The notes under the pieces are model-generated. The model worked only from the letters and a program-made list of their open reading frames with translations. It had not been told where the DNA came from and ran no database searches. The position numbers and the translations under genes were made by a program. 64,000 bases of DNA, taken from contig CAVTKL010000013.1 in the NCBI GenBank assembly GCA_963735345.1, positions 193,130-257,129 of the forward strand. Reading direction: 5' to 3'. Shown here one piece after another: positions 1 to 15,771 of the stretch (positions within the stretch are counted from its first letter, which is position 1; the number at the start of each line of letters is the position of its first letter). This DNA comes from an uncultured Thermoleophilia bacterium. Its GTDB lineage: Bacteria; Actinomycetota; Thermoleophilia; UBA2241.

Positions 1-470
1 ATCATGGCCGCGAGCAGCACCAGCGAGACGAGCTCGAACGGCAACACGTACCGGTTGAACAAGAGAGAAGAGAGCTCCCTGACGCCCGGATTGAGCGTCT
101 TCTCGCCGATCGGGCCGATGTCCGCCGCGACGATCGTCACGCTGATCGCGGCGGCGGCGAGCGCGGCCAAGACGGCGGCGGCGATGGCTTGCCGGTTGAA
201 GAACTGCCGATACTCGCCGTCCTGCACCTCGGTGAGCATGATCGCGAAGAGGATGACGATCGAGATGGCCCCGACGTACACGAGGATCTGCATGATGGCG
301 ATCAGCTCGGCGTGCAGCAGCGCATAGGCGAAAGCCACGCCGAGGAAGCACAGCACCATCGACACGGCGGAGTACATGACCTTCTTGGAGGCGACGACGC
401 CGAGCGCGCACACGAGCACCCACGCGGCGACGATGACGAACAGCCAAGGATGGAAGTCGCCGCCCGGCAT
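1..470 (-). CDS. nuoJ: NADH-quinone oxidoreductase subunit J (NuoJ), 5' portion; the gene continues past the window start
   Basis: Reverse translation from 470 gives MPGGDFHPWLFVIVAAWVLVCALGVVASKKVMYSAVSMVLCFLGVAFAYALLHAELIAIMQILVYVGAISIVILFAIML..., a multi-TM NuoJ-like sequence. There is an AAGGAG RBS 7 nt upstream. The start overlaps the stop of the upstream gene (TGATG). Confidence 0.7.
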   Translation of the reverse strand, partial: MPGGDFHPWLFVIVAAWVLVCALGVVASKKVMYSAVSMVLCFLGVAFAYALLHAELIAIMQILVYVGAISIVILFAIMLTEVQDGEYRQFFNRQAIAAAVLAALAAAAISVTIVAADIGPIGEKTLNPGVRELSSLLFNRYVLPFELVSLVLLAAM

Positions 471-2953
471 CAGTCTCCTTCGCCGTCAAGGTCGACCGGA
501 TCGCCCTTGATCGGCTCCCAGACGAAGCCGAGACCGAGCTGGGCCTCAAGGACGTGGGGGACCAGGTCGGTGACCGTCTCGCGCAGCACGTCGACGGGCT
601 GTGGCTTCCGCACGTAGAGCGACTCGCCCGCCAGGGCCGTACGGCTGAATCCGGCGAGCTCGAAGAGGCTGGTCTGCTCCAAGGCGTTGTACGGGCAGAC
701 CTCGACGCACTCCCCGCAGAACATGCAGCGGCTCTCGTCGAGCCCATAGCGCTCGAGCTGCCGTGGATTGGTGACGATCGCCCCCGTCGGACACGTCTCG
801 GCGCACTTGCCGCACGACACGCAGCCGACCATCTGCAGAGGCAGGTTGTCGGCCGTACTGACGATCATGTCGAAGCCACGGCCCATGTTGTCGTAGCAGC
901 TCGCGCCCACCTCGCTCCGGCAGACGCGGACGCAGCGTCCGCAGTCGATGCAGCGGTTGGGCTCGCGCATGATGAAATCGTGACGGAAGTCGGCGGCGTA
1001 GTCGTGGGCGTCGCCGCCGTGGAAGCGGTTGCGGAACACCTCGTACTCGATGCCGTGCCGCTGCAGCCAGCAGCTTCCGTTGCTGGGGCAGTAGCAGTCG
1101 AGACAGCGCGCCGCACCCTCCACGGCGCTCGCTTCGCTGAAGCCGAGCTCGACTTGGGCGAAGGTCCCGCGCCGCTCCTCAGGGGCAAGCTTGGGCATCT
1201 CCGACGGCGGGCACGGCTTGCTCACGTCGGTGGTCATGTCGATGAACACCGGGGGGATCTCCGCCATGCGCGCGATGCGCGGGTCGATGTCGCCCTTGGC
1301 GGTCAGGGCGTCGACGAACGGCGTCGCCCGCAGACGCGCGAGCTGCTCGGAGACGGCCGCCATGTCGGCGCCACGCAGGAAGGCGTCGATGCTCCAGGCC
1401 GCCTTCTTGCCCTGCGCCACCGCCTGGATCACGGTCTGCGCGCCGAGCACCGCGTCACCGCCGGCGAAGACGCGCGGATCGGCGGTCTGATAGGTCCAGT
1501 CGTCCACCTTGATGGTGCGCCACTTGGTGCGCTTCACGCCCTGCGCCTCGCTGGTGCCGTCGAGGGCGGGGTAGTGGCCGATGGCGGCGATGACTTGATC
1601 GCAGGCGACGATGAACTCGGAGCCCTCCACGGGCACCGGACGGCGCCGCCCGGAGGCGTCTGGCTCGCCCAGCGCCATGCGCTGCATCTCGATGCCGGTC
1701 ACTCTGTCCGCGGCATGGCGGTGAAGACGGTCGGTGATGATCCTCACGGGTGCGCACAGCAGCTCAAGCTTGACGCCCTCTTCCTCGGCCTCGTCGACCT
1801 CGCTTTCGTGGGCGGGCATCTCCTTGCGCGACCTGCGGTACAGACAGATCACCTCCCTGGCGCCCCTGCGCACTGCGGTGCGACAGGCGTCCATGGCGGT
1901 GAAGCCGCCGCCGATGACGACGACCCTCTCGCCCACGTGCACATCGCCATCGCGCTCCAGGTCCCCGAGGAGACCAGCAGCGGAGACGACCCCGTCCGCG
2001 TCCTCGCCTGGGATGCCCAACGCGTTGCTGCCGCAGGCGCCCAACGCCAGGAAGACGGCGTCGTGGTCCTCGAGCAGGCTCTCGAGCTCATAGTCGACGC
2101 CGAGCCGGATGCCCGCCTGCAGCTTGACGCCCATGCGCCACAGGACATTGATCTCCTTGTCGAGGATCTCGCGCGGCAGACGATAGCTGGGGATGCCGTA
2201 GCGCAACATGCCGCCCGGTTTGGGCATCGCCTCGAAGATCGTGACTGCATGTCCCTCGAGCCGGGCGTAGAAGGCAGCGGCGAGGCCAGACGGCCCGCCG
2301 CCCACGATCGCCAGGCGCTTGCCTGAATCCGGCTTGGGATCGACCGGCAGCAGCAGCTCGCCGTCCTGCTCCTCATCGAGGCACTGGTCGGCCATGAAGC
2401 GGTGGAGCTGGCAGATCGTGATGGACTGGTCGACCAGCTGACGGCGACACGGTCCTTCGCAGGGCCGCGGGCAGACGCGCCCGAGGATGGCCGGGAAAGG
2501 CAGGTCCTCGCGCAGCTTGCGCACACCGTTCTTGTAGTCTTGGTGCGCCACGAAGTCGAGGAACTGCGGGATCTTGATGTGCGTCGGGCAGGCGTCGCGG
2601 CAGGGTGGCGTGCAGAACGAGTTGTGGCTGCTGAGGAGCAGTTCGAGGTACAGATGGCGCATGGCGCGCACTTTGTCGGTGTTGGTGCGCACGACCATGC
2701 CCGCCGCGACGGCGGTCGTGCAGCTCGTCATGACCTTGCGCGCGCCCTCGACCTCGACGATACACAGGCGGCAGGCGCCCGAGGCGGGAAGCCGCGGCTC
2801 GTAGCACAGGGTCGGGATGTGGATGCCGACGCGGCGCGCCGCCTCGAGGACGGTCTCGCCGGGACTGCAGACCACGTCCTGATCGTCGATCGTCACCACG
2901 ATCTCGGTGGATCGGGACTGACTGCGCACGGTCGTGTCGGTGGGAGCGGCCAT
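470..2953 (-). CDS. NuoG/HoxU-like Fe-S subunit lacking the molybdopterin-like domain. Domain order is NuoG-type 2Fe-2S ferredoxin, a complete glutamate-synthase-small-subunit (GltD/NfnB)-like NAD(P)H flavoprotein module, the NuoG His/Cys-cluster and 4Fe-4S region, and a C-terminal NuoI-like 2x[4Fe-4S] ferredoxin
   Basis: 827 aa. N-terminus: CSPGETVLEAARRVGIHIPTLCYEPRLPASGACRLCIVEV (NuoG 2Fe-2S). GltD motifs follow: CTPPCRDACPTHIKIPQF, ILGRVCPRPCEGPC and GKRLAIVGGGPSGLAAAFY...VVVIGGGFTAMDCARTA. NuoG-like segments: CLDCYCPSNGSCWLQ and RCIDCGRCVRVC...GFDMIVST...GCVSCGKCAETCPTGAI. Final RCMFCGECVEVCPYNAL...SLFELAGF...SLY resembles the NuoI C-terminus. The stop overlaps the nuoJ start. Confidence 0.85.
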   Translation of the reverse strand: MAAPTDTTVRSQSRSTEIVVTIDDQDVVCSPGETVLEAARRVGIHIPTLCYEPRLPASGACRLCIVEVEGARKVMTSCTTAVAAGMVVRTNTDKVRAMRHLYLELLLSSHNSFCTPPCRDACPTHIKIPQFLDFVAHQDYKNGVRKLREDLPFPAILGRVCPRPCEGPCRRQLVDQSITICQLHRFMADQCLDEEQDGELLLPVDPKPDSGKRLAIVGGGPSGLAAAFYARLEGHAVTIFEAMPKPGGMLRYGIPSYRLPREILDKEINVLWRMGVKLQAGIRLGVDYELESLLEDHDAVFLALGACGSNALGIPGEDADGVVSAAGLLGDLERDGDVHVGERVVVIGGGFTAMDACRTAVRRGAREVICLYRRSRKEMPAHESEVDEAEEEGVKLELLCAPVRIITDRLHRHAADRVTGIEMQRMALGEPDASGRRRPVPVEGSEFIVACDQVIAAIGHYPALDGTSEAQGVKRTKWRTIKVDDWTYQTADPRVFAGGDAVLGAQTVIQAVAQGKKAAWSIDAFLRGADMAAVSEQLARLRATPFVDALTAKGDIDPRIARMAEIPPVFIDMTTDVSKPCPPSEMPKLAPEERRGTFAQVELGFSEASAVEGAARCLDCYCPSNGSCWLQRHGIEYEVFRNRFHGGDAHDYAADFRHDFIMREPNRCIDCGRCVRVCRSEVGASCYDNMGRGFDMIVSTADNLPLQMVGCVSCGKCAETCPTGAIVTNPRQLERYGLDESRCMFCGECVEVCPYNALEQTSLFELAGFSRTALAGESLYVRKPQPVDVLRETVTDLVPHVLEAQLGLGFVWEPIKGDPVDLDGEGD

Positions 2954-2959
2954 GATCGT

Positions 2960-4873
2960 CTACTCGCCAGGGCCGGCGATCGCCGCCGCCTGCTCGCTGC
3001 CGGTCCAGACCTTGACCGCGCCGAACTTGCACACCTGCCGGCAGGTGTCGCACTTGATGCAGGCGCTGGTGTCGATGACGTGCGGCAGCTTCTTCTCGCC
3101 GGCGATGCAGGAGGTTGGGCATTTGCGGGCGCAGAGCGTGCAGCCGGTACAGGCGTCGGCGTCGATGTAGTACGTGATGAGCGCCTTGCAGCGACCGGCC
3201 GGGCAGCGCTTCTCGTTGATATGCGCCTCCAGCTCATCGTGGAAGTAGCGCAGCGTGGTGAGCACCGGGTTGGGCGCCGTGCCGCCGAGCGCGCACAGCG
3301 AGCCCTCGATGACGTACGCGGAAAGCTCCTCGAGCAGTTCGATGTCTCCCTCGCGCCCGTCGCCGGCGGTGATACGCATGAGCGTCTCGAGCATGCGCTT
3401 GGTGCCCAGACGGCAGGGCACGCACTTGCCGCACGATTCGTCCTGCGTGAACTGCAGGAAGTAGCGTGCCAGGTCGACCATGCAGGTGGTGTCGTCGACC
3501 ACGACCAGGCCGCCGGATCCGACGATCGCGCCCGAGGCGGCCAGCACCTCGTAGTCGACCTGCGTGTCGAGCATCTCGCCGGGCAGGCAACCGCCCGAGG
3601 GCCCGCCGAGCTGCACGGCCTTGAAGGAGCGGCCCGGCAGCATGCCCCCACCGATGTCGAAGATGATGTGCCGCAGCGTGGCGCCCATCGGCACCTCCAC
3701 CAGGCCGCCGTTGGCCACCTTGCCGGTGAGCGAGAAGATCTTGGTGCCGCGCGAGTCGCCCATGCCCATCTCGGCGAAGGCCTCGGCGCCGTGCCGCACG
3801 ATCCAGGGAATGTTGGCGAACGTCTCGACGTTGTTGATGTTGGTCGGCCGACCCCACAAGCCCGACACGGCCGGGAACGGCGGACGCGTGCGCGGCATGC
3901 CGCGCTTGCCCTCGATGCTGGCGATCAGGGCTGTCTCCTCGCCGCAGACGAACGCGCCGGCGCCCTCGCTGATGAACACGTCGAAGGCGAAGCCCGAGCC
4001 GAGGATGTCGGCGCCCAGCAGACCGCGCTCGCGCGCCTGGACGATGGCGGCGCCCAGGCGCTCGACGGCGAAGGGGTACTCGGCGCGCACGTAAACGTAG
4101 CCTTCGTGTGCGCCGATCGCGTACGCCGCGATCGTCATGCCCTCGAGGATCACATGTGGGTTGCCTTCGAGGACCGACCGGTCCATGAAGGCGCCCGGGT
4201 CGCCCTCGTCGGCGTTGCAGATGACGTACTTGATGTCGCCCTTGGCCTTGCGCGCGAAGTCCCACTTCGTCCCGGTGGAGAATCCCGCGCCACCGCGTCC
4301 GCGCAGGCCCGAACGCGCGACCACGGCGATGACTGCCTCGGGATCGTCGTCGGCGAGCGTCTCGGCCAGAGCGGCGTACCCGCCGTTCACGAGATAGTCG
4401 TCGATCGAGTAGGGATCGATCTTGCCGTTGAGCGCCAGCACGAGGCGACGCTGCCCTTTGTAGAAGGGTATGTCGGCCTCGTTGGCCAGCGCCTCGCCGC
4501 TCACGGGATCACGGTAGAGGATCTTGTCGGCCGCGCCCTCGACGCCTTGCACGCCCGCCGCGATGATGGCGGGCACGTCCTGCGGGCGCACGTGCGGGTA
4601 GAAGAGACCCTTGGGATGGACGACGACGATGGGGCCTTGCTCGCAGAAGCCGTGACAGCCCGTCTCGACGATGGGGACGGCATCGGTGAGGCCCAGGGCA
4701 GCCAGCTCCGTTTTGATCGCCTCACGCACCGCCAGGCGCCCCGAGGCGTGGCAGGCGGTGCCGGCGCAGATGCGCAGCTCGAGGGCGCCCTCGTGCGCCA
4801 CGACGCTCTCGGGTCGCAGAGCCCGGCACAGGGCTTCGTCCACAGCCGCGGCCCGTGGCGTGACGGGGCTCAC
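2960..4873 (-). CDS. nuoF: NADH dehydrogenase flavoprotein subunit of HydB/HoxF/FdsB type: NuoF core with an N-terminal thioredoxin-like [2Fe-2S] domain and a C-terminal 2x[4Fe-4S] ferredoxin domain
   Basis: 637 aa (canonical NuoF is ~440 aa). N-terminal CAGTACHASG...CHGFCEQGP (NuoE-like). Core GRGGAGFSTGTKW...ICNADEGDPGAF (FMN/NADH site), SCGKCVPCR (N3 cluster). C-terminal CTGCTLCARKCP...CIKCDTCRQVCKFGA. GTG start overlaps the upstream stop (GTGA). Confidence 0.9.
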   Translation of the reverse strand: MSPVTPRAAAVDEALCRALRPESVVAHEGALELRICAGTACHASGRLAVREAIKTELAALGLTDAVPIVETGCHGFCEQGPIVVVHPKGLFYPHVRPQDVPAIIAAGVQGVEGAADKILYRDPVSGEALANEADIPFYKGQRRLVLALNGKIDPYSIDDYLVNGGYAALAETLADDDPEAVIAVVARSGLRGRGGAGFSTGTKWDFARKAKGDIKYVICNADEGDPGAFMDRSVLEGNPHVILEGMTIAAYAIGAHEGYVYVRAEYPFAVERLGAAIVQARERGLLGADILGSGFAFDVFISEGAGAFVCGEETALIASIEGKRGMPRTRPPFPAVSGLWGRPTNINNVETFANIPWIVRHGAEAFAEMGMGDSRGTKIFSLTGKVANGGLVEVPMGATLRHIIFDIGGGMLPGRSFKAVQLGGPSGGCLPGEMLDTQVDYEVLAASGAIVGSGGLVVVDDTTCMVDLARYFLQFTQDESCGKCVPCRLGTKRMLETLMRITAGDGREGDIELLEELSAYVIEGSLCALGGTAPNPVLTTLRYFHDELEAHINEKRCPAGRCKALITYYIDADACTGCTLCARKCPTSCIAGEKKLPHVIDTSACIKCDTCRQVCKFGAVKVWTGSEQAAAIAGPGE

Positions 4874-5628
4874 TCGACGCCCTCCCGCCGACGCAGGTCG
4901 ATGACTGTCTTGCGCGCCTTGTCCGGGGTCATGCGGCCGAGCGTCTCGCTCTCACCCACGCGCACCACCGGCGCCAGCGCGCAGGCGCCGACGCAGCTCA
5001 CGGCCTCCAGGGTGAAGAGGCCGTCCTTGGAGGTCTTGCCGACCTCCACGCCGATCACCTCCGAGAAGGCCGCGGTGATGAGCGGCGCCCCCGCCACGTG
5101 ACAGGCCGTGCCCTGGCAGACAGTGATGATGTGCTTGCCCACAGCCGAGAGGCGGAACTGATTGTAGAAGCTGACGACGCCGTAGATCTGCGAGAGCGAC
5201 ATCCCGGTCTGCAGGGCGATCTCGTGGATGGCCACGCGCGGCAGGAAGCCGTACACGTCCTGCGTGTTCTGCAGGATGGCGATGAGGCCGGTGCCGCGCT
5301 CGTAGTAGTCGTCGAGCACCGGGCGCAGCAACTGGAGGTCGATGCCGGGCTGCGCGTCCAGACGGGCGCGCGAGATGCGCGCCACGTTGGGCGCCGGGAG
5401 ATGGTACTTGCTGGAGTGCTCGACGCGGATCACCTGCACGGGGCAGTTGGTCTCGCACAGCGTGCACGAGCGACAGCGCGGCGCGCCGGTCTGCGGGTCG
5501 ACGACGACGCTGAAGAGGCCGCGGCTGCGCTCGGGCAGCGTCTCGCGCTGCTCGGGATACTGCACGGTGAGCTTCTTGGTCGGCAGGTGGCGCAGCGTCG
5601 TGCGCATGGCTTTGAGCATGCCGAGCAT
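4870..5628 (-). CDS. In-frame fusion of the N-terminal half of NuoI (one CxxCxxCxxxCP motif) with a complete NuoE/HydC-like thioredoxin-fold [2Fe-2S] domain
   Basis: Starts MLGMLKAMRTTLRHLPTKKLTVQYPEQRETLPERSRGLFSV...CRSCTLCETNCP (NuoI N-terminal signature). It then runs directly into LLRPVLDDYYERGTGLIAILQNTQDVYGFLP...SQIYGVVSFYNQFRL...ITVCQGTACHVAG...VSCVGACALAPVV (NuoE). The ATG overlaps the nuoH stop (TGATG) and the stop overlaps the nuoF-like GTG. Confidence 0.8.
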   Translation of the reverse strand: MLGMLKAMRTTLRHLPTKKLTVQYPEQRETLPERSRGLFSVVVDPQTGAPRCRSCTLCETNCPVQVIRVEHSSKYHLPAPNVARISRARLDAQPGIDLQLLRPVLDDYYERGTGLIAILQNTQDVYGFLPRVAIHEIALQTGMSLSQIYGVVSFYNQFRLSAVGKHIITVCQGTACHVAGAPLITAAFSEVIGVEVGKTSKDGLFTLEAVSCVGACALAPVVRVGESETLGRMTPDKARKTVIDLRRREGVE

Positions 5629-6749
5629 CAGGCGCTCATGACCGACACGCGGGACCGCTGCCGGCGCAGCCGCCACTTGAGGACGGGATCGAGCAGCAGG
5701 ACGAACGCCAGGAGCGCGAGCCAACTGAAGACGGCCAAGCCGTACTTCCACTGCGGCACCCAGAGCATGACGGCGCCGGTGGCCAGGATGTTGAGCAGGC
5801 CGAGGGGGATGAGGATCTTCCAGGCGAAGGCCATGAGCTGGTCGACCTGCAGCCGCGGGAGAGAGAGCCTGATCCAGACCAGCATGAACACCAGGACGTA
5901 CGTCTTGACGAGGAACCAGACGAGCGGCATCCAGGAGACGCCCCAGAAGCTGACCGCGTCCTCGAAGGGGCCGTGCCACCCGCCGAAGAACAGCGTCACG
6001 GTCACCATCGACATGATCGTCAGGCCCGCGTACTCGTTGAGGAAGAACATACCGAAGCGCATGCCTGAGTACTCCGTGCCGTAGCCGGCGACGAGCTCGG
6101 ATTCGGACTCCGGCAGGTCGAACGGGCCACGGTTCAGCTCGGCGATCGAGGCGACGTAGAAGATGAAGAACGTGAACGGCGCATAGAAGGCGATCCACTG
6201 GTAACCGGCCTGCGCCGCGACGACGTCGTCGAGGCGCAGCGAGCCGACGACCATGGCGACGACCAGCAGGGCGAGGATCATCGGGATCTCGTAGCTGATC
6301 ATCTGCGCGGCGCCGCGCAGGGCGCCGACCAGTGAGTACTTGTTGTTCGACGACCAGCCGCCGAGCAGGATCGCCAGTGTCGTGAATCCGGTGATGGCGA
6401 CGATGAAGATGAGGCCGACGTCGAGGTCGGTGGCCACCAGGCCCTTCGCGTAAGGCACGACACTCTGGATCGCCACGGCGCCGACCATGACCATGATCGG
6501 CGCCAGGGTGAAGAGGTAGGGGTCGGCCAGCGTGGGGCGGAAGTCCTCCTTGCCCATCATCTTGATGGCGTCGGCGACACTCTGCAGCATGCCCTGGGGC
6601 CCGGTACGGTTGGGGCCCAGACGATCCTGCATGAGGGCCAGGACGCGGCGCTCGTAGACGATGTTGACGAGCGCCGACACCATCACGACCGTATAGGCGA
6701 TGAGCACGAAGAGGACGGCGCGCAGGACGCCCATGAGGAGGTCGCTCAT
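5628..6749 (-). CDS. nuoH: NADH-quinone oxidoreductase subunit H
   Basis: MSDLLMGVLRAVLFVLIAY...GPNRTGPQGMLQSVADAIKMMGKEDF...EYSGMRFGMFFLNEYA...; polytopic membrane protein. Start chosen at the internal Met that gives an ATGA overlap with the nuoD stop. Confidence 0.9.
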   Translation of the reverse strand: MSDLLMGVLRAVLFVLIAYTVVMVSALVNIVYERRVLALMQDRLGPNRTGPQGMLQSVADAIKMMGKEDFRPTLADPYLFTLAPIMVMVGAVAIQSVVPYAKGLVATDLDVGLIFIVAITGFTTLAILLGGWSSNNKYSLVGALRGAAQMISYEIPMILALLVVAMVVGSLRLDDVVAAQAGYQWIAFYAPFTFFIFYVASIAELNRGPFDLPESESELVAGYGTEYSGMRFGMFFLNEYAGLTIMSMVTVTLFFGGWHGPFEDAVSFWGVSWMPLVWFLVKTYVLVFMLVWIRLSLPRLQVDQLMAFAWKILIPLGLLNILATGAVMLWVPQWKYGLAVFSWLALLAFVLLLDPVLKWRLRRQRSRVSVMSA

Positions 6750-7960
6750 CGGTCGATGCCCCCGAGGACGAGGTCCATGCTGCCCGATATCGCCACGGCG
6801 TCGGCGATCTTGTTGCCGCGCAGGAGCTTGGGGAAGATCTGCAGGTTCATGAAGCAGGGGTCGCGGAACTTGAGGCGGTACGGGTAGCGCGACCCGTCGC
6901 TGATGATGTAGGTGCCGTACTCGCCGCGCGGGTTCTCCTGCGCCGTGTAGCACTCGCCGGGGGGCGGCGTGATGGCGTAGGGGGCGCGCAACGAGCCGTT
7001 CTGGACCGCCCCCTTGGGCAACATGTCGAGCGCCTGCTCCACGATCTTCACGGACTGGCGCATCTCGTCCATGCGCACCTGGTAGCGATCGTAGACGTCG
7101 CCGTGCCGGCCCAGCGGCAGCTCGAAGTCGAGCTCCGGGTAGACGGAGTACGGGCGCGTGCGGCGCAGGTCGTGAGCGACCCCCGAGGCGCGCGCGTTGG
7201 GCCCGGTGATGGCGTAGTCGACCACGTCCTGCTGGGTGATGACGCCCTTGCCCATGCAGCGCTGCAGAAAGATCGCGTTGCGCTGCACCAGGGCCTCGTA
7301 CTCGTCGATGAGTCTGGGCATCTTGCGCATGACCTCGCGGCAGTCCTCGACCCAGCCGTCCGGCAGGTCGTAGCGGACCCCGCCGAAGCGGAAGTAGTTG
7401 AACATCATGCGCGCGCCGCTCACCTCCTCGAGCAGATCGAGGATGGGCTCGCGATCACGGAACATGTAGAAGAGCATGGCCGTCCCCAGCGGCGCCAGAT
7501 CGGCGGTGAACGTGCCGACGGCGACCAGATGGCTGGCGATGCGGTTGAGCTCGGCCATGATCACGCGGATGAACTCCGCCCGCCGCGTCGGCCGTATTCC
7601 GGCCAGCCTCTCGACGGTCATGACGTAGCCCCACTCGCAGTTCATCCCCGCCAGGTACTCCGTGCGATCGACGATGGGGATGTACTGGTAGTAGGTGCGC
7701 TTCTCGGCGATCTTCTCTTTGCAGCGGTGGAGATAGCCGACCACCGGGATCACGTCCTTGACGAGCTCTCCGTCAAGGGTGACGACGAGCCGCAGGACTC
7801 CGTGCGTCGAGGGATGCTGCGGCCCCATGTTGACGATGACCTCGTTGAACGTGAGGCCCTCCAGGTTCGAGCCCTCGCCGAGGGCGTACGCCTCGTCGAT
7901 GCGCCGCTGCGCGAGCTTGACGGCCTCGTCGGGAAGGGCTGTGGCGAACTGGTCAGACAT
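6746..7960 (-). CDS. nuoD: NADH-quinone oxidoreductase subunit D
   Basis: 404 aa; NMGPQHPSTHGVLRL..., NCEWGYVMTVERL..., RxxDPCF... Confidence 0.92.
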   Translation of the reverse strand: MSDQFATALPDEAVKLAQRRIDEAYALGEGSNLEGLTFNEVIVNMGPQHPSTHGVLRLVVTLDGELVKDVIPVVGYLHRCKEKIAEKRTYYQYIPIVDRTEYLAGMNCEWGYVMTVERLAGIRPTRRAEFIRVIMAELNRIASHLVAVGTFTADLAPLGTAMLFYMFRDREPILDLLEEVSGARMMFNYFRFGGVRYDLPDGWVEDCREVMRKMPRLIDEYEALVQRNAIFLQRCMGKGVITQQDVVDYAITGPNARASGVAHDLRRTRPYSVYPELDFELPLGRHGDVYDRYQVRMDEMRQSVKIVEQALDMLPKGAVQNGSLRAPYAITPPPGECYTAQENPRGEYGTYIISDGSRYPYRLKFRDPCFMNLQIFPKLLRGNKIADAVAISGSMDLVLGGIDR

Positions 7961-8447
7961 GCGGGTGGTTCTCGATGAGGTCGACGTAGTCCTTGCGCAG
8001 CGGATACCCGACGAAGTCGTCCTTGAGCAGGATGCGGCGCAGGTCGGGATGATCCGTGAAGCGGATGCCGAACATGTCCCACGCCTCGCGTTCGAGCCAC
8101 TCGGCGGCCGGCCACACGTCGCAGACGGTCACCACCTCGGCGTCCGTGGACGGCAGCTCCACGTACAGCTGGAAGTACGTGTTGGTCTTCCAGCTGTAGA
8201 GGTGGTACACGCTTTCGAGACGCGTGACCCGGTCGACCCCGGCGATCCAATTGAGCGTCTCATAGCCGATCTCGGCTTCAGCCTTGAGCCGGCGCGCCAC
8301 GTCCTTGAGCTTCGCCTTGTCGCAACGCGCCACGACCGTGTCCGGTTCCTGCACGCGCACGTCCTCGAGGTCGCCGGCGAAAGCGGCCGCCAGACGCTCG
8401 GCGATCGCATCCATCGCCATGAGGTTCGCGCCGATCTCCAGCGCCAT
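7953..8447 (-). CDS. nuoC: NADH-quinone oxidoreductase subunit C
   Basis: 164 aa; ...YHLYSWKTNTYFQLYVELP...EREAWDMFGIRF... Confidence 0.88.
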   Translation of the reverse strand: MALEIGANLMAMDAIAERLAAAFAGDLEDVRVQEPDTVVARCDKAKLKDVARRLKAEAEIGYETLNWIAGVDRVTRLESVYHLYSWKTNTYFQLYVELPSTDAEVVTVCDVWPAAEWLEREAWDMFGIRFTDHPDLRRILLKDDFVGYPLRKDYVDLIENHPHV

Positions 8448-8452
8448 GCGCG

Positions 8453-9001
8453 TCAGCCCCTTTCGGCGTCGGTCGCCGACGGCAGGATCGGCACGAAGGA
8501 GTGCCGCTCGATCTTCTTCTGCAGTTCGAGAAGGCCCTGGAACAGGGCCTCAGGGCGGGGCGGGCAGCCGGGGATGTAGACATCGACCGGTACCACCTTG
8601 TCGACCCCGTTGACCACGTTGTAGCCATCGTAGAACGGGCCCCCGCTGTTGGCGCAGGCGCCCATGCTCATGACCCACTTGGGCTCGGACATCTGATCGT
8701 AGAGCCGCTTGAGCACGGGAGCCATCTTCTCGTTGAGCGTACCGGCGACGATCATCAGGTCGCACTGGCGCGGGGTCGGCCGGAAGATCTCCATGCCGAA
8801 GCGCGCGATGTCGTAGCGGGCGAACCCGGAGCTGAGCATCTCGATGGCGCAACAGGCGAGCCCGTACTGAAACGGGAAGACGGAGTGCGACCGCGCCCAG
8901 CTGAAGATGAGATCGGTGGTCGTGGTGATGACGTTGGGCTGCTGGAAGTGCTCGAGCTTGGGGTAGCGGATCCGGGCTTGACGGGAGCTGTCGGCGCTCA
9001 T
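8453..9001 (-). CDS. nuoB: NADH-quinone oxidoreductase subunit B
   Basis: Starts at the internal Met MSADSS... (ATGA overlap with nuoA). [20 protein letters not shown] and PGCPPRPEA are the N2 cluster ligand motifs. Confidence 0.9.
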
Positions 9002-9366
9002 GCCCACTCGAGGGCACCCTTGCGCCACGCATAGACCAGGCCGAAGCCCAGCACGGCGACGAAGATCACCATCTCGACGAACCCCGCCGTCCCCAGGCCG
9101 CGGAACACGAGCGTCCACGGGAAGAGAAACACGGCTTCGACGTCGAACACGAGAAAGAGCAAGCCGAACACGAAGTAGCGCACGGCGAACGGCGACCAAG
9201 GGCGCCCGACCGGGGGGATCCCGCACTCGTAGGACGCGAGCTTCTCAGGCGTGAGGTGCTCCGGGTTCACCAGCTTCGAGAACAGAAGGATGAGCACGAC
9301 GAGGGCACCGCCCGCAGCGATGAAGAGCCCGATGTACACCCAATTGATGAGGTATGCGTCAGTCAT
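8998..9366 (-). CDS. nuoA: NADH-quinone oxidoreductase subunit A
   Basis: 122 aa; ...[53 protein letters not shown]... Confidence 0.9.
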
Positions 9367-9614: not shown

Positions 9615-10172
9615 GTGAACATCGGCCCCATGGAGATCGCGATCGTGCTCATCCTCGCGCTCCTCGTCTTCGGCCCCAAGCGCCTGCCACAGGCGGGCCG
9701 CAGTTTGGGCCAGGCGCTGCGTGAGCTCAAGAAGGCGACGTCATCGGCGCGCTCCGAGCTCGGTCTCGACGACGTCGCCGCGGATGTCAAGGATCTCAAG
9801 TCCAGCCTCACCATCGACCTCAAGGCGACCGACGCGCCCGCACCGCCGCGGCCCGTCGACAGCCCCGCCGGAATGGCCGCTGCCGCTACGACCGCGGCCG
9901 TCGTCGACGTGCTGCCCGCCGCCGCGGCCCCGCCGGAGGCGGAGGCCGCGACCGCTGAGGCACCGGACGAGACCGAGCCCGCCACCCCGGACACGGCCGA
10001 GCTCGTCGCCCCGGAGGAGACCGAGCCCGTCGCCCCGGACACGGCAGCCGCGCCCGCCGAGGCCCCCGAAGCCGTGGTGGGACCGGAGGCGGAGGCGACC
10101 CTCGCCACGGAGACCGCGCCGCCGGAGCCCGAAGACGCATCTACGACACCCTCCGGGCAAAGCGCGCTCTGA
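9615..10172 (+). CDS. tatA: Twin-arginine translocase TatA/TatB-family protein with a long acidic Ala/Pro/Glu-rich C-terminal tail
   Basis: MNIGPMEIAIVLILALLVFGPKRLPQAGRSLGQALRELKK is the TatA/E signature. The tail carries repeated ETEP(A/V)(T/A)PDTA segments. Confidence 0.85.
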   Translation: MNIGPMEIAIVLILALLVFGPKRLPQAGRSLGQALRELKKATSSARSELGLDDVAADVKDLKSSLTIDLKATDAPAPPRPVDSPAGMAAAATTAAVVDVLPAAAAPPEAEAATAEAPDETEPATPDTAELVAPEETEPVAPDTAAAPAEAPEAVVGPEAEATLATETAPPEPEDASTTPSGQSAL

Positions 10173-10180
10173 GGCGCTCT

Positions 10181-10972
10181 GTGGCGGCCTCCCCCGAAGA
10201 CACCTTCACCGTCCTCGAACACCTGGACGAACTGCGCAAGCGCATGTTCTGGGTGATCGTGGTGCTGATCGCCGGCGTCATCGGGGCGGCCATCTTCAAC
10301 GACCGCCTCTTCGATCTGCTGCTCTATCCGCTCAATCAGGTGTCGGGCCTCGATGTCGACTCATACAAGATCATCACGCTGAGCCCGACTGAGCCATTCA
10401 TGGTCAGCCTCAAGGTCTGGGTCGTGGCGAGCCTGCTCATCACCTCTCCGTTCCTCATCTGGCAACTCTGGGCGTTCGTCGGGCCGGCGTTCACGAGCAC
10501 CGAGAAGCGCTATTTCTATCCCGTGGTGCTGGCGACCATCGCCCTGTTTCTCGGCGGGGTGGCCTTCGGCTACCTCATCGTGCTTCCCAAGGGCCTCTCG
10601 TTCCTGCTCAACTTCGGCGGTTCGACCTTCAACGTGCAGAACCGCGCCTCGGAGTACTTCACCTTCGTGGCTCTCTTCATCCTCGCCTTCGGCGCCATCT
10701 TCGAGCTGCCGGTCATCCTCGTGCTGCTTGCCAAGGTCGGGGTGATCGACGACAAGTTCCTGCGCAAGAACCGCCGCTATGCGATCGTCATCAGCGCCCT
10801 CGTGGCGGCCATCCTCACCCCGGGCCAGGATGCGTTCTCGATGGTCGCGATGCTCGTCCCTCTCCTGGTCCTCTACGAGGTCTCGATTCCTATCGCGCGT
10901 CTCGTGCAGCCCAAGCCGGAGGGATCAGCAGGCGCGAAAGACGCGGACGACCTCGCCGCGGGGGCGACCTGA
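10181..10972 (+). CDS. tatC: Twin-arginine translocase subunit TatC
   Basis: 263 aa, 6-TM; LEHLDELRKRMFWVI...; adjacent to tatA. Confidence 0.88.
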   Translation: MAASPEDTFTVLEHLDELRKRMFWVIVVLIAGVIGAAIFNDRLFDLLLYPLNQVSGLDVDSYKIITLSPTEPFMVSLKVWVVASLLITSPFLIWQLWAFVGPAFTSTEKRYFYPVVLATIALFLGGVAFGYLIVLPKGLSFLLNFGGSTFNVQNRASEYFTFVALFILAFGAIFELPVILVLLAKVGVIDDKFLRKNRRYAIVISALVAAILTPGQDAFSMVAMLVPLLVLYEVSIPIARLVQPKPEGSAGAKDADDLAAGAT

Positions 10973-11122
10973 CCCTTCGCGACGTTCTGCCGCGGCGCGT
11001 GGCCGGGATGCGTCTCGCGCCGGCGAAGCGAACGCCGGCGGACGCTCGCGCGTCTCATGAAGGACCGGCGTTCGAGCGCCGCACGCAGGTGCGCGCCGCC
11101 ACATCGAGTACAATGAGGATAC

Positions 11123-13348
11123 ATGGCTGATCAGGAGCGACATCGCGACACCCCTGAAGAGCTCCGGCGCCAGCATCGGCAGCGCGAACGACGCCGGCCC
11201 AAGCCGCGCAAGCGGGTGTGGCTCAGGGTCATCTTCCTTGTGTTCGCGCTACTCGTCATCGCCGCGATCGGGATGGGCGCCGGCGGCATCTTCGCCCTCT
11301 CGCGCAACTTGCCGTCCCTCGAGAATCTCGAGCGCCGACCGAACGCCGTCAACACGACGATCTACGACCGCAACGGCGTGAAGTTCGCCGAACTGCACGG
11401 CGCCGAGAACCGTGTCATCGTCGCGAGCACCAAGATCCCCGACGCGATGAAGCAGGCGACGGTCGCCACCGAGGACGCGCGCTTCTACACCCATCACGGC
11501 GTCGACATGCAGGGCATCGCCCGCGCCCTCGTCGAGAACCTGCGGGCCGGCGGCATCGTCCAGGGCGGTTCGACCATCACCGAGCAGTACGTCAAGAACG
11601 CCTATGTGGGCAACGAGCGCACGTACACACGCAAGCTGCGCGAGGCGGTGCTCGCGTGGGAACTGGAAGACAAGTGGTCGAAAGACAAGATCCTCACCGA
11701 GTACCTCAACACCGTCTACTACGGCGCCGGCGCCTACGGCGTCGAGGCGGCGGCGCGCACCTACTTCCACAAGCGCGCCTCACAGCTCACGCTGGAGGAG
11801 TCGGCCCTGCTCGCGGCGCTGCCGAAGTTCCCGACCCGCTACTCTCCGACGACCGACCCCAAAGAGGCCAAGAAACGCCGCAACATCGTCCTCGACCTCA
11901 TGGCCACGCACGGCTACATCACCGCCGAGAAGGCGGCCTCCGCCAAGAAGCGCAAGCTGGGCGTCTACAAGCACCCGCCCTCGCTGAACAACAGTCTGGC
12001 CGACTACTTCACCGACTACGTGACGCGCGTGCTCACCAAGCGCTACGGCACGCGCCAGGTGTTCGAGGGCGGTCTCAAGGTCTATACCAGCATCGACTTG
12101 AAGTGGCAGCAGGAAGCTATCGACATCATCAAGGGCACCACCGACCCACTGAACTTCGGATTCAAGCCTTCAGCGGCACTGGTGGCGATCGACCCCAAGA
12201 ACGGCTACATCCGCACGATGGTCGGCGGTCTCGACTACAAGAAGCAGAAGTTCAACCTGGCCTGGCAAGCCAAGCGCCAACCGGGGTCGTCGATGAAGCC
12301 CTTCGTGCTCACCGCCGCCGTGCTCCAGGGTATGAACCCTGACACCACGTACTACTCGTCACAGAGCCCGATCGTCATCCCGATGGGGTACGCGGCGCCG
12401 TGGATCGTGAACGGTGACGGCCCCGGCGGGCCGGAGACCGTGTCGCAGGCCACGACCATCTCCGACAACGTCGTCTACGCTCAACTCTCAGTCGATGTCG
12501 GCCCTGCGAACACGGCCGCGATCGCCCGCAAGATGGGCATCACCAGCAAGCTCGATGAGGTACCCTCCATCACGCTCGGAACCTCCGTCGTGAGCCCGCT
12601 CGAGATGGCCGACGCCTACGCCACGCTGGCGAGCGGCGGCATCCATCACCCACCGCAGGCGATCGTCAAGGTCGTGCTGCCCAACGGCCGCGTCGACTGG
12701 AGGCCCAAGACGAAGGGCAAGCGCGTTCTTCCGGCCGGCGTCGCCTCAGTCGTCACACAGTGCCTCGAGCGCGCCGCCACGAGCGGTACCGGCGCGCCCT
12801 CCGGGGCGTACTACCCGTACCCGCGCGCCGGCAAGACCGGCACCACCGAGAACGGCTGGGACGTCTGGTTCTGCGGCTACACGCCACAACTCGCCGCCGC
12901 GGTCTGGATGGGCGACTCGGAGAAGAACTCGCCCATGGACGGTGCTTACGGCGGAACGTACTGCGCGCCGATGTGGGCCAAGTTCTTCGCCAACGCGTTC
13001 GCAAACCAGGCGCACCCGGGGTTCACATACACACCCTGGTCCTTCAGCCCTTGGGACGGGGCATACTCCAAGATGTCGCCGTCCGCCTCACCGTCACCGT
13101 CGGGGAGTGGCGCGCCGACGCCGACGCCGACACCGACCAAGACGATCAAGCCGACACCGACCAAGACCCCGACGCCGACACCGACGCCGACACCGACCAA
13201 GACCCCCACGCCGACCCCGACGCCGACCCTCTCCGCGCCGGCGCGCGGCGAGGGCAAGGCCATCGCCGTCGAGTCGCGGACGGGTGACGGCTCGACCGGG
13301 ATCACGGGAGCCTTCGCCGGCTGGCTCTCGAGCCTCTTCGGCTTCTGA
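11123..13348 (+). CDS. Class A penicillin-binding protein (PBP1A): GT51 transglycosylase plus transpeptidase, with a C-terminal Pro/Thr repeat tail
   Basis: EDARFYTHHGVD...GGSTITEQYVKN (GT51); SSMKPF (SxxK); PT/PTK repeats at the C-terminus. Confidence 0.9.
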   Translation: MADQERHRDTPEELRRQHRQRERRRPKPRKRVWLRVIFLVFALLVIAAIGMGAGGIFALSRNLPSLENLERRPNAVNTTIYDRNGVKFAELHGAENRVIVASTKIPDAMKQATVATEDARFYTHHGVDMQGIARALVENLRAGGIVQGGSTITEQYVKNAYVGNERTYTRKLREAVLAWELEDKWSKDKILTEYLNTVYYGAGAYGVEAAARTYFHKRASQLTLEESALLAALPKFPTRYSPTTDPKEAKKRRNIVLDLMATHGYITAEKAASAKKRKLGVYKHPPSLNNSLADYFTDYVTRVLTKRYGTRQVFEGGLKVYTSIDLKWQQEAIDIIKGTTDPLNFGFKPSAALVAIDPKNGYIRTMVGGLDYKKQKFNLAWQAKRQPGSSMKPFVLTAAVLQGMNPDTTYYSSQSPIVIPMGYAAPWIVNGDGPGGPETVSQATTISDNVVYAQLSVDVGPANTAAIARKMGITSKLDEVPSITLGTSVVSPLEMADAYATLASGGIHHPPQAIVKVVLPNGRVDWRPKTKGKRVLPAGVASVVTQCLERAATSGTGAPSGAYYPYPRAGKTGTTENGWDVWFCGYTPQLAAAVWMGDSEKNSPMDGAYGGTYCAPMWAKFFANAFANQAHPGFTYTPWSFSPWDGAYSKMSPSASPSPSGSGAPTPTPTPTKTIKPTPTKTPTPTPTPTPTKTPTPTPTPTLSAPARGEGKAIAVESRTGDGSTGITGAFAGWLSSLFGF
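13116..13233 (+). repeat. Tandem CCGAC(N)CCGAC-type repeats encoding a (PT)n/PTK low-complexity tail within the PBP gene
   Basis: Direct inspection: ccgacgccgacaccgaccaagac... is reiterated. Confidence 0.7.
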
Positions 13349-13424: not shown

Positions 13425-14771
13425 TCAGAGAGCCGTGCGCCGGTCGACGACGCGCACGGCTTTGCCCTCAGAACGCTGGATCGTGCGCGGCTCCTTCAGC
13501 TTGACCGCCACCTGGATGTTGAGCACGCTGAAGATCCGCGACTGCACCTTTCTCTGGAAGCGTTCGAGGTCCCCCATGGTCTCCGGGAAGACGCCCTCGC
13601 CCACTTCCACCCAGACCTCGATGACGTCCAGGAAGCCCTCGCGATCGACCACGATCTGATAGTGCGGCTCGATCTCCGGTATGCTCATCAGGACTTCCTC
13701 GATCTGACTCGGGAAGACGTTGACGCCTCTGATGATGAGCATGTCGTCGCTGCGCCCGATGGGCTTGCTCATGCGCAGGGACGTGCGCCCGCAGGCACAC
13801 GGGCTCGAGTCCAGACTGCAGAGGTCGCGCGTACGGTAGCGGATGAGCGGCTGCGCCTGACGCGAGAGGGTCGTGAAGACGAGCTCGCCGACCGTTCCCT
13901 CGGGCAGAGGCTGCAGCGTCTCGGGGTCGATGATCTCGGCAAGGTAGTGGTCTTCGTTCACGTGCATGCCGGCCTTGCAGAGGCATTCGAAGGCCACGCC
14001 CGGGCCGCCCATCTCAGAGAGACCGTAGATATCGAGAGCATCGATGCCGAGCGCGGCCTCGATGAGCGTACGCATCTCGTTGGTCCAGGGCTCGGCGCCG
14101 TGGAAGCCCACGCGGATCGGCAGATCCTCCGGCCGCAGGCCGCGGTCGCGGGCGGCGTCGCCCAGATACATCGCGTACGACGGCGTGCAGCTGAGCGCCG
14201 TGGCGCCGAAGTCGCGCATGATCTTGAGTTGACGCTCGGTGTTGCCCCCCGAGATCGGCACCACCGTGCAGCCCAGCCTCTCGGCGCCGAAGTGGAGGCC
14301 GAGGCCGCCCGTGAAGAGCCCATAACCGTAGGCGTTCTGAAGCAGATCGCCCGGCTGGATCCCTCCGGCGGCCAGCGTACGCGCGATCAGATCACCCCAC
14401 GTGTCGATGTCGGCGCGAGTGTACCCGACGGTGGTCGGGTTCCCGGTCGTGCCCGATGAGGCGTGTACTCGCACGATCTGCGCGCGCGGCCGGGCGAACA
14501 TGCCGAACGGGTAGTGGTCGCGCAGGTCGGTCTTGGTGGTGAAGGGCAGACGCGAGACATCGGCGCGCGAGGCCACGTAGTCGGGGGCGATCCCGGCCTG
14601 CTCCAGGCTCTTGCGATAGAACGGTACGTTCGCGCGGGCGTTCTCGAGGACGGCCCGCAGACGCTCCATCTGCACCTCGGCGAGCGCCTCACGCGGCAGT
14701 GTCTCGGCCTCCGGCTCCCACATCAAGCCGCCGCAGAGGTCGGGGAGGAGATGCTCGTCGTGAGCGCTCAC
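13425..14771 (-). CDS. paaK: Phenylacetate-CoA ligase family protein (PaaK / arylacetate-CoA ligase)
   Basis: ...VPFYRKSLEQAGIAPDYVASRADVSRLPFTTKTDLRDHYPFGMFA...SSGTTGNPT...; ATGA overlap with the upstream ACT gene. Confidence 0.85.
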   Translation of the reverse strand: MSAHDEHLLPDLCGGLMWEPEAETLPREALAEVQMERLRAVLENARANVPFYRKSLEQAGIAPDYVASRADVSRLPFTTKTDLRDHYPFGMFARPRAQIVRVHASSGTTGNPTTVGYTRADIDTWGDLIARTLAAGGIQPGDLLQNAYGYGLFTGGLGLHFGAERLGCTVVPISGGNTERQLKIMRDFGATALSCTPSYAMYLGDAARDRGLRPEDLPIRVGFHGAEPWTNEMRTLIEAALGIDALDIYGLSEMGGPGVAFECLCKAGMHVNEDHYLAEIIDPETLQPLPEGTVGELVFTTLSRQAQPLIRYRTRDLCSLDSSPCACGRTSLRMSKPIGRSDDMLIIRGVNVFPSQIEEVLMSIPEIEPHYQIVVDREGFLDVIEVWVEVGEGVFPETMGDLERFQRKVQSRIFSVLNIQVAVKLKEPRTIQRSEGKAVRVVDRRTAL

Positions 14772-15181
14772 AGCGCGCGCACCTCCTCGTCGCTCAGCAG
14801 TGTCACCTTGCCGCGCAGCAAGTCGATGGCGCGGTCGATGTCGTGCACCGCGAAGCAGATGTTCTGGAAGGAGATGCTGTAGAGATAGTCGATGGAGACG
14901 CCGGCGGCGGCAAGCGTGTCGAGCACCTCCGCGAGGCCGCCCGGCTGGTCAGGCACGCGCACGCACAGCACCTGCGAGAAGTGGGTCGTGAAGCCGGCAT
15001 CGTGCAGGAGCGCCCGCGCGGTTGCGGGATCGGTCACGATGAGCCGCAGAATGCCGTACTCGGCGGCTTCCGTGGTGGAGAACCCGCGGATGTTGATGCC
15101 CGCCTTCCCCAGAAGGTCGGCCACCTCAGCGAGACGGCCACTTCGATTCTCGAGAAACAGGGTGAGCTGTGTGACCTTCAC
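14768..15181 (-). CDS. ACT-domain protein (small regulatory partner common in ior/paaK clusters)
   Basis: Only the C-terminal 137 aa of the 340-aa ORF is protein-like (VKVTQLTLFLENRSGRLAEVADLLGKAGINIRGF...). The GTG start overlaps the iorB stop. Confidence 0.65.
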   Translation of the reverse strand: MKVTQLTLFLENRSGRLAEVADLLGKAGINIRGFSTTEAAEYGILRLIVTDPATARALLHDAGFTTHFSQVLCVRVPDQPGGLAEVLDTLAAAGVSIDYLYSISFQNICFAVHDIDRAIDLLRGKVTLLSDEEVRAL

Positions 15182-15771
15182 TGGCTGACCTCCTCGCTGC
15201 CGAAGGCGCGCCCAAGAGCGAACGCCCGCTGATTGACGGTCAGGATCTTCGCCGGGACGGCGGCCGCGAGGCCGCGCTGCCAGGACTCCTCGCTGAAGGG
15301 CAGCACAGCGCTGGCCGCCCCAAGAAGTGCGACATTGGCGGCCTTCTCCGTGCCGGCCTGCCGCGCCAGGTCCGTGGCGTCGACCGCGATGACGCGCACG
15401 CCGCGTTGCTCGGCGGCCGCGGCGAGATCCTCTGGGTACTCGGCCTCGCGCCGCAGGACGCAGCCCGGAGCGATGCGGGTGGTCACGGCGCAGACGAGCG
15501 TCCCGTGCGGCCCCAGGAGGTCGAGACCGCGATGCCCCTCCAGCAACTCGACACCGATGACCACGTCGGCGTGACGCGAGACGGGCGACCACACATGATC
15601 GCCGAAACGCACGGAGCTGAGCACGCTGCCGCCGCGCTGCGACATGCCCTTGACCTCGCTGGCCTTCACGTCGAAGCCCTCGGCGGCCGCGGCCGCGGCA
15701 AGGACGGCGGAAGCCAGGAGGATACCCTGCCCGCCGACGCCGACCAGCGAGACCGTCGTGACCCCGCTCAT
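15178..15771 (-). CDS. iorB: Indolepyruvate:ferredoxin oxidoreductase beta subunit
   Basis: MSGVTTVSLVGVGGQGILLASAVLAAAAAAEGFDVKASEVKGMSQRGGSV...; ATGA overlap with iorA. Confidence 0.85.
   Translation of the reverse strand: MSGVTTVSLVGVGGQGILLASAVLAAAAAAEGFDVKASEVKGMSQRGGSVLSSVRFGDHVWSPVSRHADVVIGVELLEGHRGLDLLGPHGTLVCAVTTRIAPGCVLRREAEYPEDLAAAAEQRGVRVIAVDATDLARQAGTEKAANVALLGAASAVLPFSEESWQRGLAAAVPAKILTVNQRAFALGRAFGSEEVSQ

Follow-up and report, generated by a model that had tools for sequence, protein, structure and literature searches.

Where is the other half of NuoI? The question is raised by a complex I (nuo) operon in a 64-kb stretch of DNA from an uncultured Thermoleophilia bacterium (contig CAVTKL010000013.1; the whole stretch of 64,000 nucleotides is called the window below). 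One gene of this operon, at 4870..5628 on the minus strand, starts as NuoI and ends as NuoE. Canonical NuoI is a single protein of ~16-23 kDa that carries both cluster N6a and cluster N6b and bridges NuoG to NuoB. An earlier note on this DNA had taken the second NuoI half to be absent; we found it instead at the C-terminus of a protein of 827 amino acids (aa) encoded two genes downstream, before nuoJ. From the comparisons set out here, we consider it likely, with a probability of roughly 80%, that NuoI is functionally rebuilt from two halves, each fused to a different protein.

The N-terminal half and its fusion partner

The flagged gene encodes a NuoI part, a linker, and a NuoE-type domain:

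4870..5628, minus strand: NuoI-N::NuoE (BfuC-like) fusion (IN::E), 252 aa plus stop
5404..5628, minus strand: NuoI N-half (IN), aa 1-75, with the N-terminal helix, the YPE/ERxRG region, and the first cluster motif
5440-5475, minus strand: IN cluster motif, C52-x2-C55-x2-C58-x3-C62-P63
5317..5403, minus strand: linker from IN to the NuoE domain, aa 76-104, the least conserved segment
4873..5316, minus strand: NuoE/HydC/BfuC thioredoxin-like [2Fe-2S] domain, aa 105-252

The hidden Markov model (HMM) of NuoI, TIGR01971, matches aa 8-74 of the fusion with its positions 2-66 of 121 (E 8e-13, 48 bits), and several further NuoI equivalog models also match the N-terminus. With the first 99 residues as the query, aa 4-72 match solved NDUFS8/TYKY/Nqo9 chains at E 4e-10 to 1e-7. 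A generic Fer4 motif was ruled out as the explanation of these matches, since they take in the NuoI-specific N-terminal ~45 residues ahead of the motif. Further along, aa 105-242 correspond to PF01257 (2Fe-2S_thioredx; 141.7 bits against a cut-off of 24.8), and the four 2Fe-2S ligand cysteines (C171, C176, C212, and C216) are all present and invariant in the alignment. Against the canonical NuoE equivalog NF005722 the fusion scores 122 bits, under the cut-off of 141, and the HoxE and FDH-gamma models score alike; the nearest non-fused relatives come from Stn-like trios of Firmicutes, as their E subunits.

The TIGR01971, PDB, and PF01257 matches agree with the earlier proposal that the N-half of NuoI is fused in frame to a complete NuoE-type domain. 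That proposal would have fallen had the first 90 aa proved unlike NuoI or had the N-terminal part been a known extension of NuoE. By HMM and PDB alignment, the ~75 N-terminal residues resemble NuoI, and the searchable literature describes no such extension. The fusion has exactly one CxxCxxCxxxCP motif (C52, C55, C58, and C62-P63), as had been counted before, and a second one was not found in the open reading frame (ORF). We also confirmed the absence of a stand-alone nuoI between nuoH and nuoJ, and a tblastn search of the 64-kb window returned no further NuoI-like ORF.

In ferredoxin folds with two [4Fe-4S] clusters, including Nqo9, each cluster is held by three cysteines of one motif and by the Cys-Pro cysteine of the other. 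The earlier argument that a half-NuoI is unable to ligate N6a or N6b alone is in keeping with this rule.

The C-terminal half and its conservation

The 827-aa protein, whose main part is a NuoG/GltD-like subunit (G'), ends in the following elements:

473..769, minus strand: NuoI C-half (IC), aa 729-827 of the 827-aa protein, with motif 2 and a conserved tail
692-727 (motif bases), minus strand: IC motif, RYGLDESR-C743MFC746GEC749VEVC753P-YNALEQTSLFELA

Its last ~100 residues include RYGLDESRCMFCGECVEVCPYNALEQTSLFELA, and aa 729-774 match TIGR01971 positions 69-114 (E 9e-16, 57.5 bits). When IN and IC are joined in silico, the product aligns in one stretch to residues 23-136 of 7ar7_I (E 3e-18) and to residues 7-129 of Thermus 2fug_9; the two halves are thus colinear with a full NuoI. 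Because the join aligns to nearly whole solved NuoI/NDUFS8 chains, NuoI is, by these alignments, split around an E-F-G' cassette and not truncated. The two NuoI motifs are set apart by about 1,500 codons, that is, by three protein domains or genes.

Together, IN and G' hold four cluster motifs. According to the alignment to NfnA 9bov_A, 'CIDCGRCVRVC' and 'CVSCGKCAETCP' form the A3/A4 domain, which leaves motif 1 of IN and the motif of the G' tail as the sole unpaired partners. Given the ferredoxin-fold rule and the fact that only these two motifs are left to pair, N6a and N6b would each be ligated by both polypeptides. It could be argued that the G' tail is self-contained, with 'CVSCGKCAETCP' as motif 1 and 'CMFCGECVEVCP' as motif 2, while IN pairs with 'CIDCGRCVRVC' or binds something else. 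The NuoI HMM does span both motifs (positions 45-114), preceding motif included, in the tails of two distant loci described below (L081 and L082), and the 20-aa spacing is like that of small clostridial ferredoxins. In the window protein, however, the NuoI HMM aligns the last motif only (positions 69-115), and the A3/A4 domain to which 'CVSCGKCAETCP' belongs is conserved. A self-contained tail would also leave two motifs unpaired and would explain neither the conservation of IN nor the constant co-occurrence of IC, and we regard it as improbable.

The halves are embedded in the following operon:

8998..9366, minus strand: nuoA (Pfam Oxidored_q4, E 7e-36)
8453..9001, minus strand: nuoB (Pfam Oxidored_q6, E 2e-28; start set at MSADSS)
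7953..8447, minus strand: nuoC (Pfam Complex1_30kDa, E 3e-39)
6746..7960, minus strand: nuoD (Pfam Complex1_49kDa, E 9e-94)
5628..6749, minus strand: nuoH (Pfam NADHdh, E 5e-113)
2960..4873, minus strand: NuoF/BfuB-like flavoprotein, 637 aa (Pfam and PDB matches)
470..2953, minus strand: NfnA/StnC-like (NuoG/GltD-like, G') subunit fused to NuoI-C, 827 aa (Pfam, NCBIfam, and PDB matches)
1..470, minus strand: 5' part of nuoJ, running off the window start (translation; the ortholog in the related locus L014 matches Pfam Oxidored_q3)

The gene order is therefore nuoA-B-C-D-H-[NuoI-N::NuoE]-NuoF-like-[NuoG/GltD-like::NuoI-C]-nuoJ(-K-L-M-N), 13 genes in all. The window itself has nuoA, B, C, D, H, and J, and nuoK, L, M, and N were read after nuoJ in the orthologous locus L014, so that the Q-module and membrane-arm genes nuoA, B, C, D, H, J, K, L, M, and N stand in one cluster. 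The nuoB product has the tandem-cysteine N2 motif (GLACCAIEM ... GACANSGG ... IPGCPP, read in the sequence). Every cassette junction has overlapping, translationally coupled stop and start codons (TGATG or GTGA); the sequence is TGATG both where the nuoH stop meets the ATG of the fusion gene and where the stop of the 827-aa gene meets the nuoJ ATG. Divergently from nuoA, on the plus strand at window positions 9615-13348, lie tatA, tatC, and a gene for a class A penicillin-binding protein; the tatA product has a long C-terminal tail rich in Ala, Pro, and Glu, and the penicillin-binding protein has one rich in Pro and Thr.

The architecture is widely conserved. A protein search returned 941 relatives of the fusion, and the best 120 clusters, which we examined, have nearly the full length (almost all of them 251-253 aa, within a range of 210-340), show 66-95% identity, and keep the cysteines invariant; several carry a Thermoleophilia annotation. 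A scan of related genomes, as the earlier note had advised, recovered the NuoI-N::NuoE gene in 28 loci (one genome per species), nearly all in metagenome-assembled genomes (MAGs) of Thermoleophilia/Actinomycetota from different projects. By tblastn, the order nuoA-B-C-D-H-[IN::E]-F-[G'::IC]-J holds in all loci. The frame from IN to E is unbroken in 26 of the 28, and the two exceptions are long-read MAGs that have frameshifts elsewhere too. In all 18 loci with enough downstream DNA, IC is fused directly after G' and is followed by nuoJ. On the possibility, left by the earlier note, of a complete nuoI past nuoJ, 18 related loci were informative: nuoJ or nuoK-L-M-N comes directly next, with no nuoI match by tblastn.

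With an uncultured source, and with frameshifts in some related long-read MAG loci (L027 and L048), one might suspect that the fusion is only apparent and stems from chimeric assembly, from a wrongly joined contig, or from frameshifts in a pseudogene. We give such an artefact almost no weight: 28 independent MAG loci share the architecture, with 26 frames intact; the best 120 clusters among the 941 homologs are near full length; the stop/start overlaps are kept at every junction; and the codon statistics are those of genuine genes, with a GC content at third codon positions (GC3) of 0.9. An artefact or a pseudogene is thus excluded by the conservation data. Two of the loci, L016 (labelled Deltaproteobacteria) and L026 (labelled Vicinamibacteria), are contigs of 3.8 and 2.0 kb with Thermoleophilia-type genes that are 64-84% identical; these labels most likely reflect mis-binning rather than lateral transfer.

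Conservation is strongest in the NuoI part. Among 118 homologs, mean column identity is 0.887 in the IN core, 0.786 in the NuoE domain, and 0.686 in the linker, and the cysteines of the IN motif are invariant. The IC motif reads 'SRC.FCGECVEVCPY.ALEQ' without change in 17 orthologous loci. C52, C58, C62, and P63 are also invariant in a 43-sequence alignment that includes the two distant homologs P0124 and P0122, and C55 is present in both of these.

P0124 and P0122 came from an exhaustive HMMER search of 1.84 billion representatives of 50%-identity clusters, in which the main cluster, P0124 (38% identity), and P0122 (with an IN-like N-terminus) were the only full-length matches. The P0124 locus, L081 1321-6023, lies on a metagenomic contig of low GC (Logan SRR22388304) and has the order nuoH-[IN::E]-[NuoF::GltD]-[HoxU-like::IC]-nuoJ-K-L-M-N. 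Its NuoF::GltD protein (1048 aa) carries GltD at the NuoF C-terminus and is without the C-terminal ferredoxin domain of the BfuB type, and its HoxU-like protein (265 aa), with an intact HxxxCxxCxxxxxC motif, ends in a NuoI C-half, 'GYRLDLSSCIYCGLCVESCPHDALETGSDYELA'. Judged from these genes, NuoI is split in the same way in this second lineage, and the NADPH domain is attached differently. The P0124-type lineage is rare, with two protein clusters only.

Several points weigh against a NuoI rebuilt from two halves. The halves score 48 and 57.5 bits, each under the curated NuoI cut-off of 113, and the fusion neither carries both cluster motifs on one polypeptide nor scores above 113 bits. AlphaFold2 (AF2) gave the IN+IC chimera, run as a single sequence, an uninformative predicted local distance difference test (pLDDT) score of 35. 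NuoE is far from NuoI in canonical complex I, and the ~30-aa linker must either bridge a long distance or belong to a module that docks differently. Moreover, as the second lineage is without the BfuB ferredoxin domain, bifurcation is not needed for the split architecture. When the natural IN::E protein was modelled by AF2 with the 43-sequence alignment, the NuoE domain reached pLDDT 75-91, the IN half stayed below 50, and the linker was low or intermediate. The low values of IN fit a half-domain that needs its partner, and the shallow alignment could equally explain them.

The low family scores of both halves and the inability of AF2 to fold IN alone, together with the single motif in a 252-aa protein, would also suit a truncated NuoI, in which IN is a vestigial N-terminal docking peptide on NuoE and the complex has no functional N6a/N6b pair. 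This seems very unlikely to us. The complementary half is in the same operon, at exactly complementary model coordinates, and co-occurs at all 18 of the testable loci, and IN is the best-conserved part of the protein, with invariant cysteines. In addition, without N6a/N6b the electrons would have no path to N2. We therefore retain the reading of NuoI as a protein rebuilt from IN and IC.

The inserted cassette and a proposed electron path

The genes between the NuoI halves do not encode a canonical N-module of NuoE, NuoF, and NuoG. Their PDB matches are of the NfnABC/Stn (Bfu-family) type. The 637-aa protein begins with a thioredoxin-like 2Fe-2S domain (CAGTAC...GCHGFC), followed by a domain for flavin mononucleotide (FMN) and NADH (Pfam and sequence motifs), further on has an N3-type 4Fe-4S site and a CPAGRC site, and ends with a 2x[4Fe-4S] ferredoxin domain; all the features that define BfuB, sites B1-B5 included, are present. 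Its closest solved relatives are B subunits of bifurcating enzymes (7t2r_B, 9bov_B, 7q4v_B (HydB), 8oh5_B, and 9n5u_B (NfnB); E 1e-219 to 1e-244).

The 827-aa protein has the arrangement that defines NfnA, with a GltD/NfnL-like domain (GGGFTA...YRRSRKE) for flavin adenine dinucleotide (FAD) and for NADPH, with its GxGxxA site, inserted in a NuoG-type 2Fe-2S N-terminus. After the GltD domain come a HoxU/NuoG-like 2x[4Fe-4S] domain and the NuoI C-half. Residues 19-751 match 9bov_A (E 2.5e-186), 8oh5_C (S. ovata Stn) and 9n5u_A (NfnA) also match, and NF009454 matches aa 17-680 (614.8 bits). The alignment to 9bov_A (1178 aa) ends at chain residue 700, from where the 827-aa protein goes on as NuoI-C; the C-terminal Fdh/NuoG-like (molybdopterin-type) domain of NfnA is lacking. 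By these matches, the three inserted genes are an NfnABC/Stn-type module rather than a canonical nuoEFG. NfnABC/Stn is a Bfu-family NADH-dependent ferredoxin:NADP+ oxidoreductase (PMC7483475) with the electron chain FAD-A7-A6-A3-A2-A1-[B1-FMN-C1] (PMC11829005), and the cassette architecture agrees with the descriptions of Kremp 2020 (PMC7483475), Li 2025 (PMC11829005), and Xiao 2025 (PMC12018979).

Such a module need not belong to complex I. The cassette could encode a soluble NfnABC transhydrogenase that is merely housed in the nuo operon, next to an 11-subunit ferredoxin-dependent complex I. Soluble Stn/NfnABC homologs are active as trimers (PMC7483475, PMC11829005), Firmicutes have stand-alone E-F-G' trios without IN or IC, and an indolepyruvate:ferredoxin oxidoreductase is encoded nearby. 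In the window, however, each NuoI half shares a polypeptide with a cassette protein, IN with the first and IC with the last, which makes the module inseparable from NuoI, and IC has replaced the molybdopterin-like domain that mediates oligomerisation of NfnA in the soluble enzymes. A separate soluble enzyme thus has little probability.

In the arrangement that we favor, a Bfu-family flavoprotein trimer would be the electron-input module of complex I, with its three genes inside nuoI. The cassette would have been inserted in the loop between the two CxxCxxCxxxCP motifs of NuoI, so that IN, with the membrane-proximal helix and motif 1, would form the N-terminus of the NuoE/BfuC-like subunit, and IC, with motif 2 and the tail, would form the C-terminus of the NfnA-like subunit in place of the molybdopterin-like domain. 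From the fold rule and homology, N6a and N6b are each predicted to be bridged by both polypeptides. If so, the subunits would have to associate for the NuoI domain to form, and this would clasp the module onto NuoB/D/H.

Electrons would enter from NADH at the FMN of the BfuB-like subunit and from NADPH at the FAD of the GltD-like domain, both into a cluster chain of the NfnA type. They would pass on through the HoxU-like A3/A4 domain to N6a/N6b in the split NuoI, to N2 in NuoB, and to menaquinone, with proton pumping by NuoH/J/K/L/M/N. We have moderate confidence in an NAD(P)H:menaquinone function of the complex. Any bifurcation or confurcation with ferredoxin is speculative; because no site of the bifurcating members is missing from the BfuB-like subunit, coupling to ferredoxin, by confurcation of NADH and reduced ferredoxin or by transhydrogenation of the Nfn type, is possible.

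A few kb from the nuo cluster, at window positions 13425-17510 on the minus strand, lies an indolepyruvate/2-oxoacid:ferredoxin oxidoreductase pair (POR_N + TPP_enzyme_C, and POR gamma-type), with an ACT-domain protein and a phenylacetate-CoA-ligase-like AMP-binding enzyme in the same interval. These genes make up a ferredoxin-reducing pathway for aromatic amino acids, and a low-potential donor could come from it.

Without the cassette, the gene order is A-B-C-D-H-I-J..., which points to an ancestor of the 11-subunit type. A nuoABCDHIJKLMN cluster of this type likely took up the Bfu C-B-A cassette in nuoI.

NuoI is not the only host of such a cassette. The P0122 contigs (L082 97-7726, and L083; ENA metagenome) contain a third host, a 2-oxoacid:ferredoxin oxidoreductase cluster with the order PorD-like, PorA, [NuoI-N-like half-ferredoxin::BfuC, 280 aa]-BfuB-[NfnA-like::half-ferredoxin 'FRVDESRCIMCRECVGVCP'::PorB, 1060 aa]. 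An HdrA-hosted Bfu C-B-A cassette is found in L031 9677-15724 (WOR-3 bacterium CP070686.1), with similar cases in L039, L053 (Stahlbacteria), and L060. There, a 297-aa protein joins HdrA2 positions 141-256, which include the start of the FAD-binding region and end right after the first CxxCxxCxxxCP motif, to a BfuC domain; a BfuB-like gene comes next, and then a 1116-aa protein made of a NuoG/HoxU-like N-terminus and HdrA2 positions 220-562 and beyond. From these domain boundaries, the NuoI, PorB-linked, and HdrA hosts are alike in having the Bfu C-B-A cassette just after the first motif of a 2x[4Fe-4S] domain. The shared topology suggests a general route for recombining redox modules.

Taking all this together, it is conceivable, although rather doubtful as a whole, that the operon encodes a membrane-bound, Bfu-family proton pump that links NADH, NADPH, ferredoxin, and menaquinone and is held together by two two-polypeptide [4Fe-4S] clusters, and that Bfu C-B-A cassettes have spread through the inter-motif loops of ferredoxin domains.

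Significance and comparison with known systems

We found no description of a split or fused NuoI in the searchable literature, where related topics gave background papers only. PMC4758237 and PMC5736913 were considered as precedents and set aside, as they mention GltD and Nuo in unrelated contexts. The components are all familiar; a cofactor-binding subunit split round a three-gene module, the predicted inter-subunit clusters, and an NADPH input of the Nfn type to complex I appear to be undescribed.

It has long been asked how the ancestral 11-subunit complex I came by its NADH-oxidising N-module. This lineage would represent an independent and genetically explicit solution, with a soluble NAD(P)H module of the bifurcating type spliced into a ferredoxin-like electron entry port. 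If this is true, it would be a complex I able to use NADPH directly and a natural case of a cofactor domain rebuilt from two subunits, in which inter-subunit [4Fe-4S] clusters act both as a wire and as an assembly clasp. It would, in addition, be a relative of NfnABC/Stn anchored in the membrane and could help to locate the exit site of low-potential electrons in Bfu enzymes, and the split ferredoxin domain might serve as a universal plug that wires a flavoprotein module to new catalytic partners. As the hosts are widespread uncultured Thermoleophilia of soil and peat, the enzyme may be relevant to energy metabolism in these bacteria.

The closest comparison is with NuoI/Nqo9/TYKY (NDUFS8) itself. 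The operon encodes colinear counterparts of its N-terminal region, of its two CxxCxxCxxxCP motifs, of its strand 'RY.(I/L)D...C', and of its segment 'FE(L/F)A', and the place in the operon, between nuoH and nuoJ, is the same. Unlike in that family, the two halves are on two polypeptides, neither of which reaches the family cut-off.

With NfnABC/Stn (PDB 8oh5, 9bov, and 9n5u; PMC7483475, PMC11829005, and PMC12018979), the cassette shares three consecutive genes in C-B-A order, the architectures of the BfuC-like, BfuB-like, and NfnA-like subunits (E 1e-148 to 1e-244), and the motifs HxxxCxxxCxxxCP and CxxCxC, by which the GltD insertion is recognised. It differs in that the ~430-aa Fdh/NuoG-like molybdopterin domain is gone, with the NuoI C-half as the end instead, and in that the BfuC-like subunit bears the NuoI N-half. 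NfnABC/Stn is soluble, whereas the cassette here stands in a nuo operon and its product is predicted to be membrane-bound and quinone-linked.

Schut et al. (2022) described a predicted 14-subunit complex I with BfuABC, 'Nuo-Bfu', in Geobacter, Deferribacteres, Planctomycetes, and Nitrospirae, proposed confurcation of NADH and reduced ferredoxin for it, and also described a Dehalococcoides 'Mbh-Bfu' cluster (PMC9304861). Thermoleophilia are not among the reported taxa. Both 'Nuo-Bfu' and the operon studied here are complex I clusters with a Bfu-type N-module (BfuB with extra clusters) that are predicted to pump protons and reduce menaquinone, and that may confurcate NADH and ferredoxin. In 'Nuo-Bfu', which is defined by 14 separate subunits A-N, the module stands at the nuoEFG position, NuoI is separate and intact, and the NuoG-like BfuA has no NADPH/GltD domain. 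The Thermoleophilia operon departs from this definition, as its module is of the Nfn type, has its genes within nuoI, and is linked covalently to the two halves of NuoI.

Finally, this operon and other variants of complex I, both those with known fusions and the 11-subunit form (NDH-1, Fpo-like), have shifted subunit boundaries in a conserved core in common, and after removal of the cassette the order here is the A-B-C-D-H-I-J-K-L-M-N of the 11-subunit form. The known fusions, such as NuoCD in E. coli and NuoBCD in some deltaproteobacteria, join whole subunits end to end. Here, in contrast, one subunit appears to be split inside its cofactor-binding domain, with each half attached to a different partner.

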